The notes under the pieces were generated by a model. It was given only the letters and a program-made list of their open reading frames with translations. It ran no database searches and was not told the DNA's origin. 36,671 nt of DNA, from the IMG/VR virus record IMGVR_UViG_3300038415_000180, one strand, 5' to 3'. The stretch is from a virus. Position numbers and translations under genes: made by a program. Positions 15,875 through 34,821 of the stretch are shown piece by piece (position 1 is the first letter of the stretch; each line of letters starts with the position of its first letter).

Positions 15875-16558
15875 TTAGGTGGGGGCGTGATTACATTCAG
15901 CATCGTCTTTAGTCTCCTCTGTCTGTGGCCCGCGCTCTTCCGCGTCTGCAATCGCCTGGGCAATGGACTTGTACAGCTCGGCTCTCCCATGAAGATCTCC
16001 CATCAGGTAGACCTCGTGGGCCAATGTTCGATGCCTCTCGGTTCTGACCTCTACGGCCCCTATGACACAGATCTTGTGGGTAACACCGGTTCCCTTACCG
16101 CGAGTCTTCCCACCGATGAAGACCTCATCAACCTCAACGGGATACCCCCAACCGATGCTGTCCCTCTCGGGTCGAACCATGCTTGCTCGGAGCTTGTGAA
16201 GCAATTGGAACGCGGTTTCGTACCTATTGATGTCGAGTTGCCTTTGAAACTGCAAAGCACTCTGTCCAGGTGTCTGAGTCGTCACTAGGTAGGCTCCCCA
16301 GAACCAGGTTGAGAGCGAGGTATGGGTGTTCTGCATCACGGTACCGGCCGTAAGAGAAGTGTCGGCCATACAGGCTCGGCATCGAAGAACCCCGGGACGA
16401 TTAGCAAACCGGTAGGGCTCCTTTATTACTACGCCGCACTTGGGGCAAGTGAAGCCTTCCGGCCAACGAAGCTTCTCAAGATAGTCGGCGCAGGCAGCAT
16501 CGTTCGGGAAGACTCTTTGAAACTCAGGTAGTGAAGTTGGGAAACCGCGAGAATCCAT
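15875..16558 (-). CDS. IS1595-family transposase-like protein reduced to its N-terminal zinc-ribbon and HTH part (227 aa). It diverges and stops before any DDE catalytic region. It is either a truncated pseudogene or a domesticated DNA-binding protein.
   Basis: FPNDAACADYLEKLRWPEGFTCPKCG matches the transposase zinc-ribbon signature of IS1595/ISXO2-like elements. It is followed by ...VEVDEVFIGGKTRGKGTG...KICVIGAVEVRTER, as at the start of the IS1595 DDE domain, but the rest is absent. I saw no inverted repeats flanking it. Confidence 0.55.
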   Translation of the reverse strand: MDSRGFPTSLPEFQRVFPNDAACADYLEKLRWPEGFTCPKCGVVIKEPYRFANRPGVLRCRACMADTSLTAGTVMQNTHTSLSTWFWGAYLVTTQTPGQSALQFQRQLDINRYETAFQLLHKLRASMVRPERDSIGWGYPVEVDEVFIGGKTRGKGTGVTHKICVIGAVEVRTERHRTLAHEVYLMGDLHGRAELYKSIAQAIADAEERGPQTEETKDDAECNHAPT

Positions 16559-24617: not shown

Positions 24618-24911
24618 ATGGACTCAACGCAAATCCTAAAAATATCAAGTAAATACGAAACCATACTTAAGGCTACAGGTGTATACGCCGTAAAATCAGA
24701 TACTTCACTGAACGTAGGACCAGGGAATAGTAAGGCTTTTGAGCATTGCCTTTGGATGTGCTATGAAATCGAGCGCCAGGTGAGGGCCGGAGAGCGGGAT
24801 AAGGCCATGCGCTGGGTGTGCTTTATCCAAGGAGTTCTATGGGTTTCCGGCCTTTTGAGTATTGACTCGATGCGTGATGATAATCGACCCGCGGTCGGAA
24901 GTGCAACCTGA
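24618..24911 (+). CDS. Hypothetical protein, 97 aa.
   Basis: ORF. Confidence 0.4.
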   Translation: MDSTQILKISSKYETILKATGVYAVKSDTSLNVGPGNSKAFEHCLWMCYEIERQVRAGERDKAMRWVCFIQGVLWVSGLLSIDSMRDDNRPAVGSAT

Positions 24912-25207: not shown

Positions 25208-28200
25208 CTAGTTGTTGACGTCGGCCAAAAACTGACGAGCGTTCTCATACACAAGCTTGGCTGTCTGGATCTCATTGCGGATAGCAATGTTGTTGAGGTG
25301 CAAGTCCACTGAATCAATCAGATCTTGGGGCTCGACCTGAACGAACGGGCGCATGATCTTGTGCATCTCATCCCGTTGCTTCTGGGTGAACTTCGACGGA
25401 TGGAACTTGTTCCCACCTTGGTTGAGCAACTCTAGGACGATGTCAGCAGCCTCCGGCTGAGTGTTCACGAAGTGACTCATCTTGATCCGCCAGACATGGT
25501 CGACGACCTTGCGCATGATGTCCCCAACGGCCCCGTCAAGGCGTGTGGAAGCCTCTGTGAGGACTCCGTTGCCCATTGACTCTGAACAGGGTAGGTAGGC
25601 CAGGAACTGCTTCAGAAGCCTGATACGGTCGTCCTGGCTTAGCTCGCCAACGATGATGACTTTGCTGAACCGACGGATGAGAGGCATCGAGATCCGCTCG
25701 GGATGGTTCGTGGCCCCCCAGAGAGCCAGGTGAGGGTAGCTCGTGATGCCATCCATCAAGACCTGGAACTCAGTGGCGAGGTTGGTCCCACCAAAGGCCG
25801 CATGCCCACGGTCCCCGTTGAGAATCGTATCGATCTCGTCGATGAGGAAAAACACTTGTTTCTTTGACTCCCGCTGAATCTTTAAGCCAGCTTCGAACAG
25901 ACGCTTTGGGTTCTTCTCACTTTCCCCTTTCCAACAAGTAAGGAAATCTGAGGCTTGCGCGAAGATTCCGATGCTCTGTCGATTCGAAGCCACACCTCGA
26001 AGGATCTCTGTTTTGCCCGAGTTATGAGTTACTGTGAAGTCACCCAGTAGATATCGTCCATCACCGTCAAGGGTAAATCCGTAATATCTCTCTTGAGGGA
26101 GTTCTCGTATAGTAAGCCCCGTACGAAGGACGTCCTTGATTTGCCTTCGTTCTCCAGCTTTCTTATGTGGAATACGCACTGGTATCAGACTCACATCTCC
26201 AGAGATCTTCACTCGGTAGTAAGTCCTCAATAACCCCTTGGTGTCTTTCTTTTGAAAAGTGGATTGATACGCAGCGAACCCTAAGCTGCAGGCAACAAAC
26301 CTCACATCATTAGCCAAGTGTTTTGACTTTGATTGAAAGTCAAAACACACATTCGACAGACTACCATCTGTGTCGATGAGTCCAGCTAGTAATTTTAGTC
26401 TATCCTTACGAGAGGCCATCTTGTAACAATTGGGTATGAACTTATTCCTTGTGGATGTCCCACCCAATCCTAAGTCACGTAGGATCAACATGATTGGATT
26501 TGGCTTATGACAGGTACCAGATAGCCAGTATCGAGTTACAGAAGAGGTTGGGTCAGGTGATGGGTTGACATGAAGCCCAAACTTCTTAGCTTGTTTGTAC
26601 ACTTCCCGGACTAACTCTGGGTCGCCAGTGGTGAGTGCTGGACAGGCTCTAATAGATCCGTCCCCAAGAAGTGCTCCTAAAAAATATGGGTCAAGCGGTA
26701 GTCTAGGTTTATGGGTAAACTCAACCCCAACTCGAAACAACTTGAATTCACGCTTCATATAAGCGGACCAGCCTAAGTAATCAGTAACCGCTACATCTCT
26801 AACCTCACCACTCAACTTCTTGTGTCCCATACGAACAAGTGTCAGAACATGACCCTTGTTCACAACCCAAGGTTCTCCTTTGGTTGGAAGGATCTCGACC
26901 ATATCTTCAGACCCACGATGTAGCTCCAGTACCCTACGGGGTTTGCTGTCAGGACCCATCAACAAGTCCCCAACCCTAATCCGCTCCACAGACTTCAAGG
27001 ACCCATCGAACATCAGGATCTTCTGTCCCTTACGATGACATCCCTGTGGCCCGACAAGAAGCACGTTGCTCTTGTCCGCCTTCTTCGATGGGGAGGTGGC
27101 CAGGAACACATCGAACCATTTGGCCCCATCGAGGATGTTGCTCATGAATTCGAGAACTTCCTTGAACCCAGATCCAATGACTTCGGACAGGTCCACCATA
27201 GGCTTGATGCCAGGAATGACTGTCAACTCCCCTGGGGCATCGCCGGTGAACGGGTTACCATTACCGATCTTGCAGACATAGAATGAGTTCTCTTCGAGGT
27301 TGTAGTCCCTCAGCTCTTGCTTGCGGCCGAGAATGTACTTGATGAGCGCTTCGACACTAGAGCGTTCCCTCAGCAACATCGCCACCATCTCAAGGGTCTT
27401 GTTTCTGAACTCCAACTCTTGGCGCTCCTCGATGGTGAGCAGCCCCGTCTTCTCCTTGTAAGTAACACTCTGTGGGTTCAGATCTTCGATAAAGCTCAAG
27501 GATTGTTTGAACTGGGAATCTTGATTCCTGTGTTCCTTTTGGTTAAACTTGGTGATGGTCTTGACCACCTCTGCAAAAGGGTGAGCTAATCTCTGGATCC
27601 GTGAAGACGAGTCCCACAGCCCATTCAGGCCATCAACGAGGAATCTGATGAACTTACTAGGGTCTGAGGTGAAGTCACCGAGCATTCCTGTCTGGAGTGA
27701 CTCGGCGAGGAGTACAGCCTTCCTCATCGTGTAAGCCGAGATCTCATCCGGCTTCTTGCCATCTTGGATCTCTCCATGGGAGTCTACATTCTCGTAAATC
27801 GAGATGGCCACATCCGTCGTGATGGGGTCGAAGTGAATCTTGATTCCCTCGACCGAGTGGCGATGGTTGAGAGCCTTGTAGTACCTGTCGAGGCAACCGG
27901 TGATGTGGCTGCAGATGTTGAGGATCTCCCTCTGACAGGAATTGGCTACCAGGAGATGGTTCGAGAACCTGTTTACAATAGGCCCAAACATCTGGTACTG
28001 AATCGAGAAGGTCTGCGCCTGCTCAAAAGTTCGAGGGTACCGCTCATCAGAAAGTAGTTCTATCTTCTCTGGTCGGAGGCCTCTGACAATCCCCAGCAGT
28101 TGTTGGAACCCGTTGTGCAAGTCACTGATTACTTCCAATACTATTCGAATGAAGCTGTTTCCGGCTGCATGCTTCAAGTCATCCAGCGCATCAGTGTCAG

Positions 28201-28495
28201 ACGTCATGTCCTCGAACGGGTTGCGCCTTCGGGTACTGTGTCTGACCTCCGATAGAATCGACTCAAAAGACTGACTCAAACTCGTGGTCTCGTCTTCTAG
28301 CTGACCGGTCAGGAAGGTGATCCTCTCGATCAACTCCTCGATGTCCTTCGCGAAGAGAGACTCCGCAGCATCGTTGACTACCTGAACCATCTGATAGAAC
28401 ATCATCGGATTCATCTCGACGACGTGGCTTTTACTCAAAGAGCGTTCTAGATCGTGTGAATCGAACATTTGAACGCTTGATACACCGGAACCCAA
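25208..28495 (-). CDS. Classic-clade AAA+ ATPase with a large N-terminal domain of unknown function (about 480 aa). It is interrupted in its P-loop by an intein, and the mature extein is about 755 aa.
   Basis: Once the intein is removed, the Walker A reads LLVGPQG-SGKTE. The Walker B is VFFLIDEID. The sensor-1 and second region of homology reads GATNHPERISMPLIRRFSKVIIV, with the RRF arrangement typical of Vps4, spastin and katanin ATPases. The listed start is a TTG, and an ATG lies at 28468. Confidence 0.85.
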   Translation of the reverse strand: MGSGVSSVQMFDSHDLERSLSKSHVVEMNPMMFYQMVQVVNDAAESLFAKDIEELIERITFLTGQLEDETTSLSQSFESILSEVRHSTRRRNPFEDMTSDTDALDDLKHAAGNSFIRIVLEVISDLHNGFQQLLGIVRGLRPEKIELLSDERYPRTFEQAQTFSIQYQMFGPIVNRFSNHLLVANSCQREILNICSHITGCLDRYYKALNHRHSVEGIKIHFDPITTDVAISIYENVDSHGEIQDGKKPDEISAYTMRKAVLLAESLQTGMLGDFTSDPSKFIRFLVDGLNGLWDSSSRIQRLAHPFAEVVKTITKFNQKEHRNQDSQFKQSLSFIEDLNPQSVTYKEKTGLLTIEERQELEFRNKTLEMVAMLLRERSSVEALIKYILGRKQELRDYNLEENSFYVCKIGNGNPFTGDAPGELTVIPGIKPMVDLSEVIGSGFKEVLEFMSNILDGAKWFDVFLATSPSKKADKSNVLLVGPQGCHRKGQKILMFDGSLKSVERIRVGDLLMGPDSKPRRVLELHRGSEDMVEILPTKGEPWVVNKGHVLTLVRMGHKKLSGEVRDVAVTDYLGWSAYMKREFKLFRVGVEFTHKPRLPLDPYFLGALLGDGSIRACPALTTGDPELVREVYKQAKKFGLHVNPSPDPTSSVTRYWLSGTCHKPNPIMLILRDLGLGGTSTRNKFIPNCYKMASRKDRLKLLAGLIDTDGSLSNVCFDFQSKSKHLANDVRFVACSLGFAAYQSTFQKKDTKGLLRTYYRVKISGDVSLIPVRIPHKKAGERRQIKDVLRTGLTIRELPQERYYGFTLDGDGRYLLGDFTVTHNSGKTEILRGVASNRQSIGIFAQASDFLTCWKGESEKNPKRLFEAGLKIQRESKKQVFFLIDEIDTILNGDRGHAAFGGTNLATEFQVLMDGITSYPHLALWGATNHPERISMPLIRRFSKVIIVGELSQDDRIRLLKQFLAYLPCSESMGNGVLTEASTRLDGAVGDIMRKVVDHVWRIKMSHFVNTQPEAADIVLELLNQGGNKFHPSKFTQKQRDEMHKIMRPFVQVEPQDLIDSVDLHLNNIAIRNEIQTAKLVYENARQFLADVNN
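26021..27040 (-). mobile_element. Intein of 340 aa with a LAGLIDADG homing-endonuclease domain, inserted between G and S of the Walker A motif.
   Basis: The N-terminal splice block is CHRKGQKILMFDG (Cys1). Block B is GHVLTLV. The two LAGLIDADG motifs are FLGALLGDGSI and LLAGLIDTDGSL. The C-terminal block is LGDFTVTHN, followed by Ser+1. Confidence 0.85.
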
Positions 28496-31919: not shown

Positions 31920-32504
31920 CTAGGGGTCGAGGCCAGCACTCGATGCCCTCGCCAACTGGTCCAATGCTTTATCCTTGATCTGACACACGCGAGCCTCAGT
32001 GAGACCTAGTATCTTGGCTATCTCACACAGGGAATAGTCCTCAAAGCAGTACTTCGAGAGAATGAATACCTCCTTTGGGGTGAGAAAGCTGAGAGACTCC
32101 AACACCTTTCGGAGTTCAATTCGTGCATGAACTAGCTCATCAAGAGGGCTAGTATCCGGGTCAGATAGGTTGGGATCAAGCAAATCGAACTTGGGCATCA
32201 CGCCACTCATCGTGCGCTTCTTGCGCCTGAGTGGCGTCGAGTTACGAATCTCATCTATGATGTGGCCCTTGATCCTACTACGAGCGTAGTGGCGAAACTC
32301 ATCGCGAGAGCCAGAATACTTGCGACAGGCATCCCATAAGCCGATCAAACCCCACTGATAAAGCTCCTCGTATTGTAGAAAAGGTGTACACTTTTTGGTG
32401 TAGTACCCAGCGATACTTGCCGCCATATTCATGTGGTTTTCGAACAACTCTTGAGTATCTCTAGGGGTGCTTAGTGCGGACACAAGTAGGTCCAACTCCT
32501 CCAC
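31920..32504 (-). CDS. Sigma-70-family RNA polymerase sigma factor, 194 aa, of the compact FliA/sigma-28 or SigF type.
   Basis: Region 2 reads QWGLIGLWDACRKY...FRHYARSRIKGHIIDEIRN (compare FliA GGIGLLNAVERYD...FTTYAVQRIRGAMLDELR). The region 4.2 HTH reads LTPKEVFILSKYCFEDYSLCEIAKILGLTEARVCQIKDKALDQLA. The listed start is a GTG. Confidence 0.8.
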   Translation of the reverse strand: MEELDLLVSALSTPRDTQELFENHMNMAASIAGYYTKKCTPFLQYEELYQWGLIGLWDACRKYSGSRDEFRHYARSRIKGHIIDEIRNSTPLRRKKRTMSGVMPKFDLLDPNLSDPDTSPLDELVHARIELRKVLESLSFLTPKEVFILSKYCFEDYSLCEIAKILGLTEARVCQIKDKALDQLARASSAGLDP

Positions 32505-32869: not shown

Positions 32870-33400
32870 ATGGCAAGCAACCATTATCGTCGGGTGTATC
32901 TTGCCGGCCCGGATGTCTTCTTCCCTGATGTGGCCGAGCGATCAGCTAGGTTGAAGGATACCTGCCGTCATTATGGCTTCGAGGGAGTGTTCCCCCTCGA
33001 CTCTGGAGTCAAGATCACAAGCGCTCTTGCGCGCGAGGAGAACGGCTACCTCATCTACGAAGCCAATATCAGTCTCATTCGTTCCTGCCAGGCCATCCTG
33101 GCCAATGTAACCCCCTTTCGAGGCCCGTCGGTTGATGCCGGGACCGCTTTCGAGATTGGTTTCGGTCGCGCTCTCGGTCTCGAAGTTGTCGGGTACACAG
33201 CTATCCGCAACTTGTACAAGGAGCGGGTAACCCCGGATGGTCTGATGGTCGAAGACTTTGACATGGTCGACAACCTCATGATTCACTCTGCTATGTGTGG
33301 GGATATTTTCAGCACCCCACAAGAAGCACTTGACTACTTGGCCATCTTGTTTGACTCTGGCGAGCCCACAGCCCGCGTGAGCAGCATCAGACGAACATGA
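32870..33400 (+). CDS. Nucleoside 2-deoxyribosyltransferase / deoxynucleotide N-glycosidase (Rcl/DNPH1) superfamily protein, 176 aa.
   Basis: VYLAGPDVFFPD and SVDAGTAFEIGFGRALG match the family hallmarks (IYLAGP.F and D.GT.FE.GYA). Confidence 0.65.
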   Translation: MASNHYRRVYLAGPDVFFPDVAERSARLKDTCRHYGFEGVFPLDSGVKITSALAREENGYLIYEANISLIRSCQAILANVTPFRGPSVDAGTAFEIGFGRALGLEVVGYTAIRNLYKERVTPDGLMVEDFDMVDNLMIHSAMCGDIFSTPQEALDYLAILFDSGEPTARVSSIRRT

Positions 33401-34179: not shown

Positions 34180-34821
34180 ATGCGCCAACGTTATGGAGAC
34201 TGGGTTCAGACTTTGACTGGGAATAGGTTCTATGTCCTGGACCCGGAACCCGAAGACATTAGAATCGAGGACATATCGGGCTCATTGGGGAAGATTTGCC
34301 GCTTCAATGGCCACCCGCGCGTCCCCTATTACGTGGGGCAACATTGTACTCTCGGCTCGTATGTCGTGGAGGAGCAAACCAAAAACCTGATCTTGGCCCT
34401 TGCCTTTCACCTCCATGACTCTGGTGAATCCTATCTTGGAGATATGACGCGTCCCCTGAAAGGAATGCCCGAACTCGAAGCTTACCGACTGGCTGAAAGT
34501 AAGCTGAGTCGGACCATCGAAAAAAGGTTTAGGCTCCCAGAGGGCATACTCGAAGACAAGGTCATCAAGGAAGTGGATAACCGGATGCTTTTCACGGAGA
34601 AGAGGGATCTGCTCGTGGCTCTTCAATGGGGGCATTCCGTTCAACCGTATGACTTCAAGATCAAGCCTTGGGGGTGGAGAAAGACCCAACGTAAGTATCT
34701 GGAACGATACCACGAGCTGTGCTTGAGACTCGATGGGTACCCGAAGATCGCTACTCAAGCTCTTCAACTCACTCGGTTACTACCCATCATAGGTACGGCT
34801 TTCTCGACAAGAGAGCAGTGA
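34180..34821 (+). CDS. HD-domain phosphohydrolase, YfbR-like 5'-deoxynucleotidase family, 213 aa.
   Basis: H...(GQHC) and HLHDSGESYLGDMTRP match the HD motifs of YfbR-type enzymes (LLHD.AEA.TGD.P.P). Confidence 0.65.
   Translation: MRQRYGDWVQTLTGNRFYVLDPEPEDIRIEDISGSLGKICRFNGHPRVPYYVGQHCTLGSYVVEEQTKNLILALAFHLHDSGESYLGDMTRPLKGMPELEAYRLAESKLSRTIEKRFRLPEGILEDKVIKEVDNRMLFTEKRDLLVALQWGHSVQPYDFKIKPWGWRKTQRKYLERYHELCLRLDGYPKIATQALQLTRLLPIIGTAFSTREQ

Follow-up and report, generated by a model that had tools for sequence, protein, structure and literature searches.

A gene on the minus strand of IMG/VR virus record IMGVR_UViG_3300038415_000180 probably encodes a phage protein-remodelling ATPase that is active only once protein splicing has occurred. 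The whole stretch of 36,671 nucleotides was analysed and is referred to as the window; the gene lies at positions 25208-28495. Its product consists of a family-specific N-terminal domain (N-domain), an AAA ATPase module and an intein that interrupts the nucleotide-binding P-loop.

Gene layout and conceptual splicing

The gene was read as a single uninterrupted open reading frame (ORF) of 1095 amino acids (aa) counted from the first TTG, unbroken across 3.3 kb. The likely precursor is the 1086 aa that start at the ATG at 28468 (aa 10), with homologues beginning at the equivalent Met. Walker A reads GPQG/C...HN/SGKT before excision (slashes mark junctions). Conceptual splicing joined LLVGPQG to SGKTE and gave a mature product of 746 aa. 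An earlier note on this DNA had placed the ORF at 25208-28495 and the intein at 26021-27040; these positions and both splice junctions were exact. Its 480-aa N-terminal domain was really a 476-aa N-extein counted from the ATG, of which ~420 aa do form a distinct family-specific domain; the last ~55 aa already belong to the AAA module. The parts of the gene are as follows.

25208..28468, minus strand: precursor gene, 1086 aa from the ATG plus stop codon; frame open to the TTG at 28495
27209..28468, minus strand: family-specific N-terminal domain, aa 1-420, all-alpha, ending in a conserved beta-hairpin
27041..27208, minus strand: first part of the AAA module, through the initial half of Walker A (…LLVGPQG)
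26021..27040, minus strand: intein, 340 aa, PI-SceI type, a LAGLIDADG homing endonuclease being inserted in a Hint splicing domain
25211..26020, minus strand: C-extein, 270 aa, with the second half of Walker A (SGKT), the remaining AAA module and the C-terminal helices

AAA module and clade placement

The spliced extein matched Pfam PF00004 (AAA) at 1.9e-16 (61.2 bits against a cut-off of 21.2). The class motifs GPQG/SGKT, FFLIDE, GATN and IRRF were found in the spliced protein, and Walker A, Walker B (DE), the pore-loop Trp and Gly, the sensor-1 Asn and an Arg-Arg pair were invariant in 34 homologues.

25916..25942, minus strand: pore loop 1, LTCWKGESE, Trp and Gly invariant in the family
25829..25855, minus strand: Walker B, VFFLIDEID
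25661..25720, minus strand: sensor-1 (WGATN) and second region of homology with adjacent arginines (MPLIRRFSK)
25211..25498, minus strand: C-terminal helical extension, extein aa 651-746, no known domain matched

Ranking against NCBIfam profiles gave CdvC (78 bits), CDC48 (49), PAN (41) and FtsH (39); although best of these, the NF041006 (CdvC) score of 78 bits compares with an equivalog cut-off of 650. The top single stretch in a PDB sequence search was M. sedula Vps4 (77 bits); p97/Cdc48 owed its top summed score to its two rings. When the query was confined to the second region of homology and lid, the best single stretches were CdvC (20.5-20.8 bits) and spastin (18.8 bits). Alignment of p97 in the second region of homology required a gap of 2-3 residues, p97 having Arg-Pro-Gly-Arg there. 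A full-length monomer model was obtained with a predicted local distance difference test score (pLDDT) of 80.5, and M. sedula Vps4 was its first Foldseek match (template modelling score, TM, 0.71-0.75 on target). Pfam found no MIT domain and no Vps4_C (PF09336) in the spliced protein, whose C-terminal 100 aa matched nothing. A proteasome-docking C-terminus of HbYX type was rejected by inspection of the homologue alignment: it is absent, and the C-terminus is not conserved.

Taken together, the profiles and the model indicate a classic-clade AAA ATPase whose nearest family is archaeal CdvC/Vps4, as nearest neighbour only. The Vps4/spastin type proposed at first reading was right as to the clade, with Vps4/CdvC nearest by profile, PDB search and fold. 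Membership of that family fails (no MIT, no Vps4_C, 78 bits against 650). Profile analysis of the second region of homology favoured no other AAA clade, CdvC and spastin scoring best, but the RRF motif on which the proposal leaned is not diagnostic alone. RRF is also present in ClpA/B D1.

Intein anatomy and predicted splicing competence

The intein begins with Cys (CHRKGQ…) and ends in His-Asn (…FTVTHN), followed by Ser+1. It matched Pfam Hom_end_hint at 1.9e-17, as well as LAGLIDADG_3 and Hom_end, and was homologous to PI-SceI (4.9e-15).

26837..26878, minus strand: block B, GEPWVVNKGHVLTL, Asn and His invariant in 21 related inteins
26654..26686, minus strand: LAGLIDADG motif 1, YFLGALLGDGS, aligned with the PI-SceI motif bearing Asp218
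26360..26392, minus strand: LAGLIDADG motif 2, LLAGLIDTDGS, aligned with the PI-SceI motif bearing Asp326
26018..26038, minus strand: block G and the +1 residue, FTVTHN/S

Cys1, block B (PWVVNxxH), both endonuclease motifs, a K-x-I-P motif, block F, the terminal THN and Ser+1 were invariant in 21 of 21 same-type inteins of the family. The window intein has all of the splicing residues (Cys1, the block B His in VVNKGH, THN and Ser+1). The description of a P-loop intein with full catalytic residues and both LAGLIDADG motifs was confirmed, blocks B and G not being degenerate.

The interrupted gene could in principle be a dead allele, its intein no longer splicing and its ATPase non-functional in the window phage. 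Since the essential P-loop is interrupted, the protein would lose its function with any failure of splicing. Against this, none of Cys1, the block B Asn and His, block F, His-Asn and Ser+1 is missing or varies among the 21 inteins, and the reading frame of 3.3 kb is unbroken. Extein identity to other intein-bearing alleles is 99-100%, and every family-invariant residue is kept. A dead allele is therefore considered extremely improbable, and the gene is read below as that of an ATPase restored by splicing.

Intein mobility and empty sites

An empty site was found in a close relative, P0003 (locus L017). Its extein is 89% identical, and contiguous GPQGSGKT is encoded at the same codons without an intein; the DNA of this site reads …GTCGGACCGCAGGGG/TCCGGCAAGACAGAA…. 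An intein was present in 23 of the 120 best homologues, invariably between GPxG and [CS]GK, and ~95 others besides P0003 were uninterrupted at GPxG[CS]GK. Two unrelated kinds of intein use the P-loop site: one is of LAGLIDADG type and has 339-354 aa, the other has ~278 aa. That ATPase P-loops are a hot spot for inteins has been documented (PMC4760082).

Intein and extein identities to the window gene were discordant: P0002 has an extein identity of 98.7% with an intein identity of just 66%, and P0021 an extein identity of 60% with an intein identity of 86%. The GC content at third codon positions (GC3) was 0.44 in the intein versus 0.68-0.70 in the exteins. These discordant identities, the empty allele in a close relative and the foreign GC3 show that the intein has moved horizontally and been replaced recently, the element being mobile now or until recently. 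The suspicion of mobility voiced in the earlier note was borne out by the discordance and the GC3. The gene thus offers a case of intein traffic, with two unrelated inteins competing for one P-loop site and intein alleles exchanged between near-identical host genes. The empty sites in close relatives supply the probable target sequence of the endonuclease.

The N-terminal domain

The N-domain had no match in Pfam, NCBIfam or PHROGs, and the PHROGs matches of the protein were confined to its AAA part. A fold search against BFVD gave nothing at E<=0.001. A PDB profile search matched only designed helical bundles and PspA (E 1.6), both dismissed as coiled-coil noise. The domain had been called novel, and it has no detectable relative in sequence or structure searches. 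An AlphaFold model of the N-domain (21 homologues; pLDDT 81; predicted template modelling score, pTM, 0.73) shows long helices and, after them, a beta-hairpin at 396-420. Mean column identity was 0.48 over extein aa 1-190, the most variable part of the domain, 0.73 over aa 191-260 (acidic loop HRHSxEG…ENVDxHGEIxDG) and 0.81 over the hairpin (aa 391-425).

27743..27865, minus strand: most conserved N-domain core, HRHSVEG...TTD...ENVDxHGEIxDGKxPDE, acidic loop between helices, with invariant positions
27209..27289, minus strand: conserved beta-hairpin NSFYVCKxGxGNPFxGxAPGxLxVxPG, immediately before the AAA module, column identity 0.81

A profile search of 1.84 billion representative proteins with the N-domain returned 109 clusters only. 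Full-length members have 720-770 aa, or 1020-1180 aa with intein, and the domain is N-terminal. Seven members, the weakest matches included, were scanned with Pfam, and six of the seven have PF00004 downstream of the N-domain; the exception is a marginal 379-aa match. The lengths of the other members agree with the same layout. The sequences thus point to a fixed architecture of N-domain plus AAA module and to a narrow family.

Phage lineage

Near-identical DNA to the window was not found among 50,697 deposited phages, and a protein search of the same collection with the N-domain gave no match. IMG/VR gave 15 loci of the AAA family, 10 of them on contigs of 257-448 kb, and homologues of the AAA protein in protein databases were on contigs of up to 502 kb. 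A scan of 185,579 GTDB species genomes gave one match with the family profile, on a 205-kb contig of a metagenome-assembled genome (MAG), and none with the single AAA sequence. Also encoded in the window are a fragment similar to terminase large subunit (TerL) proteins and a deoxynucleoside monophosphate (dNMP) phosphatase typical of phages. From the large IMG/VR contigs, the near-absence from GTDB and these phage-type genes, the AAA gene belongs to a lineage of uncultivated huge phages. The family is sharply bounded (~109 clusters), lies nearly entirely in such phages, and can serve as a marker for this phage group.

The C-terminal tag

Nine mutually non-homologous window proteins end in RY[EKQHN]Rx[PW]V[IL], an outcome seen in 0 of 200 shuffles.

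7288, 11412, 18716, 31442, 33675 and 34163, plus strand: ends of tagged window ORFs
9374, 11405 and 12022, minus strand: ends of tagged window ORFs

Pooled loci gave 52 tagged proteins in 32 clusters, with R-[VPL]-S-R-Y-E-R-x-[PW]-V-I-COOH as the consensus after a Pro/Glu-rich linker, and Ser/Thr at the third place in window proteins (peptide form PVRVSRYEREPVI-COOH). Synonymous codons of the tag vary, which indicates selection for the peptide itself. The tag is a genuine and portable feature. By inspection, transmembrane helices occur in some of the proteins that bear it, and 12 tagged proteins scanned against Pfam gave 0 matches.

The earlier note had proposed that the AAA protein and the tag form a pair. 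The N-domain would read the shared C-terminal tag, and the motor would then unfold, extract or hand over the tagged proteins. AAA unfoldases often recognise short terminal peptides, and in the window the tag is carried by nine unrelated proteins. Transmembrane helices in some of these would suit Msp1-like extraction, and the variable aa 1-190 of the N-domain (0.48) could co-evolve with the tag. The distribution of the tag was judged from flanks of up to ~10 kb beside the AAA gene and with two strict DNA patterns. It was found beside AAA genes that are 89% (L017), 68% (L203) and 67-74% (L051) identical to that of the window, that is, in every relative with an AAA protein at least 67% identical for which flanks were obtained. 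It was absent from L202 (62% identical), from L001-L016 and L200-L201, and from 79 of 80 metagenome loci (786 kb). The two patterns found three tag-rich contigs in IMG/VR, none of them an AAA contig, and neither pattern matched any of the ten AAA-bearing contigs of 257-448 kb.

The AAA family is thus much wider than the tag, with ~90 further AAA loci lacking it; tag-rich contigs are not AAA contigs, and the conserved N-domain positions hold across the family with or without the tag. Distribution gives the pairing no support, the tag occurring only beside AAA genes at least 67% identical, and tag reading by this N-domain is judged unlikely. If it were true, the virus would encode a system for tag-directed unfolding, extraction or delivery of dozens of soluble and membrane proteins. 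The lack of support from distribution makes for a sharper search for the tag's real receptor.

No other portable C-terminal tail was found within the same distance of distant AAA genes (L001-L016, 79 of 80 metagenome loci, L200-L202). The DGKRYKLEEV tail on the contig that holds L015 was rejected as a lineage-specific tag: it belongs to a tandem paralogue array and is not portable. This contig (IMGVR_UViG_3300023202_000247, 321 kb; L015, L195-L197, L199) carries at least 20 tandem MORN-like paralogues of ~146 aa that end in DGKRYKLEEV, and one unrelated protein of the same AAA-bearing phage has this tail. Recurrent tails were also seen in L068 (paralogue-like) and L087. Other recurrent tails were rejected as mostly Arg-rich artefacts of spurious frames.

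The major vault protein homologue

The window also encodes an 878-aa homologue of the major vault protein (MVP) at 1457-4093 on the plus strand (Pfam MVP_shoulder, 3e-9). The profile of its family matched rat and human MVP at 1.7e-43 over the repeats, shoulder and cap helix. MVPs in phages were reported earlier (bioRxiv 10.1101/2023.11.10.566534). Relatives were found in at least 77 IMG/VR huge-phage loci, a much wider spread than that of the AAA family. A copy with 45% identity lies among ribosomal genes in a small bacterial chromosome (GCA_027425155.1) and offers a clue to the host or to a transfer of the gene.

The AAA protein could work with this homologue and assemble, load or dismantle a vault-like shell, loosely like FtsH in the HflK/C cage. 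FtsH is enclosed by cages of SPFH proteins, and the fold of the MVP shoulder is SPFH-like. The homology of the 878-aa protein to MVP is genuine, and MVP and AAA genes were found on equally sized contigs (225778, 435302, 65607, ~448 kb), the four pairs spanning AAA identities of 45-89%. Against such a partnership, one of the 15 IMG/VR AAA contigs was among the MVP matches listed (two peptide patterns, a weak negative). A scan for close MVP relatives as a co-distributed partner gave no match. The bacterial chromosome has an MVP homologue and, in the GTDB scan, no such AAA gene. A distance of 21 kb separates the two genes in the window, and they lie on opposite strands. A vault partnership is doubtful, and the link is treated as a lead, not a finding. 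It is similarly improbable that, in the subclade of the window, the variable first part of the N-domain was recruited to read the tag, with the AAA motor possibly feeding a vault-like shell.

Genomic neighbourhood

The most widely kept neighbour of the AAA gene was an unannotated 97-aa ORF (window 24618-24911, plus strand); ~8 distinct phages, whose AAA identities range over 42-89%, have it no more than 10 kb from the AAA gene. Other genes of the window were noted.

7310-8227, plus strand: 305-aa ORF, its similarity to terminase large-subunit profiles limited to their middle part (phrog_2 positions 351-455 of 807)
15875-16558, minus strand: IS1595-type transposase remnant, with a zinc ribbon (3.9e-14) and a weak truncated DDE domain
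31920-32504, minus strand: sigma-70-like factor
32870-33400, plus strand: nucleoside 2-deoxyribosyltransferase
34180-34821, plus strand: dNMP phosphatase

The 305-aa ORF may be a split or fragmented terminase gene. The sigma-70-like factor, deoxyribosyltransferase and dNMP phosphatase are syntenic with the AAA gene in the P0003, P0005 and P0011 loci, where genes for a response-regulator receiver and a CCA-adding enzyme accompany them. Small accessory genes surround the AAA gene in distant relatives, among them AcrVA2-like, Cpn10 (GroES) and Acb1/2',5'-RNA-ligase-like genes (L200 3806-4936 and 13639-13932; L201 15981-16538). This neighbourhood hints at a role in infection-stage proteostasis or counter-defence.

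Proposed mechanism

Protein splicing of this kind proceeds through an N-S acyl shift at Cys1, transfer of the chain to Ser+1, cyclisation of the terminal Asn and ligation of the exteins. The gene would be translated as a 1086-aa precursor with the PI-SceI-type intein between Gly and Ser of Walker A. Cys1 would start the N-S acyl shift and the chain would pass to Ser+1; the terminal Asn would cyclise and the exteins would be ligated to GPQGSGKT. Judged by its motifs and by what is known of the family, the mature 746-aa single-ring ATPase would most likely be hexameric and would thread polypeptide through its central pore by means of the invariant Trp-Lys-Gly loop. The all-alpha N-domain of ~420 aa, with its hairpin, would select the substrate or partner. 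The intein would be a separate selfish passenger, its LAGLIDADG endonuclease cutting intein-free alleles at the P-loop DNA and copying itself in.

Because the conserved positions of the N-domain hold family-wide, its target is probably common to these huge phages or their hosts: a protein or assembly that they share, rather than a C-terminal tag specific to one subclade. The family is a candidate for a phage-specific protein-remodelling function.

Several points weigh against this proposal. The middle residue of pore loop 1 (Trp-Lys-Gly) is basic, not hydrophobic as in the aromatic-hydrophobic-Gly form. Foldseek E-values of Vps4, p97 D1, Rix7, FIGL1 and Msp1 were within about tenfold, so that clade discrimination by fold is modest, and the Pfam scan detected neither the lid nor the C-terminal extension of the AAA protein. 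In an all-versus-all ORF comparison of 18 loci the AAA gene alone was common to all, with no conserved operon partner. As to the target, given the two strict patterns and the ~10-kb range by which the tag was judged, a distant or diverged tag set may be present in other genomes.

Comparison with known systems

AAA chaperones noted in jumbo phages are BCS1-like, MoxR-vWA and ClpA/ClpX proteins (Iyer et al. 2021, PMC7824862). Like the window protein they are phage-encoded AAA+ proteins, proposed to be chaperones or translocases in infection or assembly, but none has its N-domain.

The closest cellular group is CdvC/Vps4 with katanin, spastin, FIGL1 and Msp1 (the 'meiotic' group). The phage protein shares with it a single AAA ring module and a short second region of homology with adjacent Arg-Arg (PLIRRFSK) and no Pro-Gly insert. 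The pore loop is likewise of the type aromatic-x-Gly-Glu-Ser-Glu-Lys. It differs in having an unrelated all-alpha domain of ~420 aa where MIT would be, no Vps4_C or detectable beta-domain, and an additional C-terminal extension of ~100 aa. Its gene belongs to huge phages, and no partner resembling ESCRT-III was identified. The type II classic AAA proteins p97/Cdc48 and Rix7 have the classic-clade motifs, the top summed scores in the PDB search and similar fold scores, but possess two AAA rings and N-domains of their own; a gap of 2-3 residues is needed to align their second region of homology, and their per-domain scores were below that of CdvC.

The intein was compared with PI-SceI, the intein of the yeast V-ATPase subunit A gene VMA1. 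The Hint and LAGLIDADG domains are homologous, and both catalytic Asp motifs and the Lys of K-x-I-P are kept in the window intein. PI-SceI is also inserted in a P-loop, the VMA1 insertion site lying directly ahead of [C/S]GKT. The window intein differs in its host protein, a different and non-orthologous ATPase, in its length (340 versus 454 aa), in its Ser at +1 and in its occurrence in phage genomes. Its sequence marks it as a fresh example of an already known type, a PI-SceI-type element in an ATPase P-loop. The types of motor and intein are thus known already; new here are the N-domain without known relative and the phage-restricted family that carries it.

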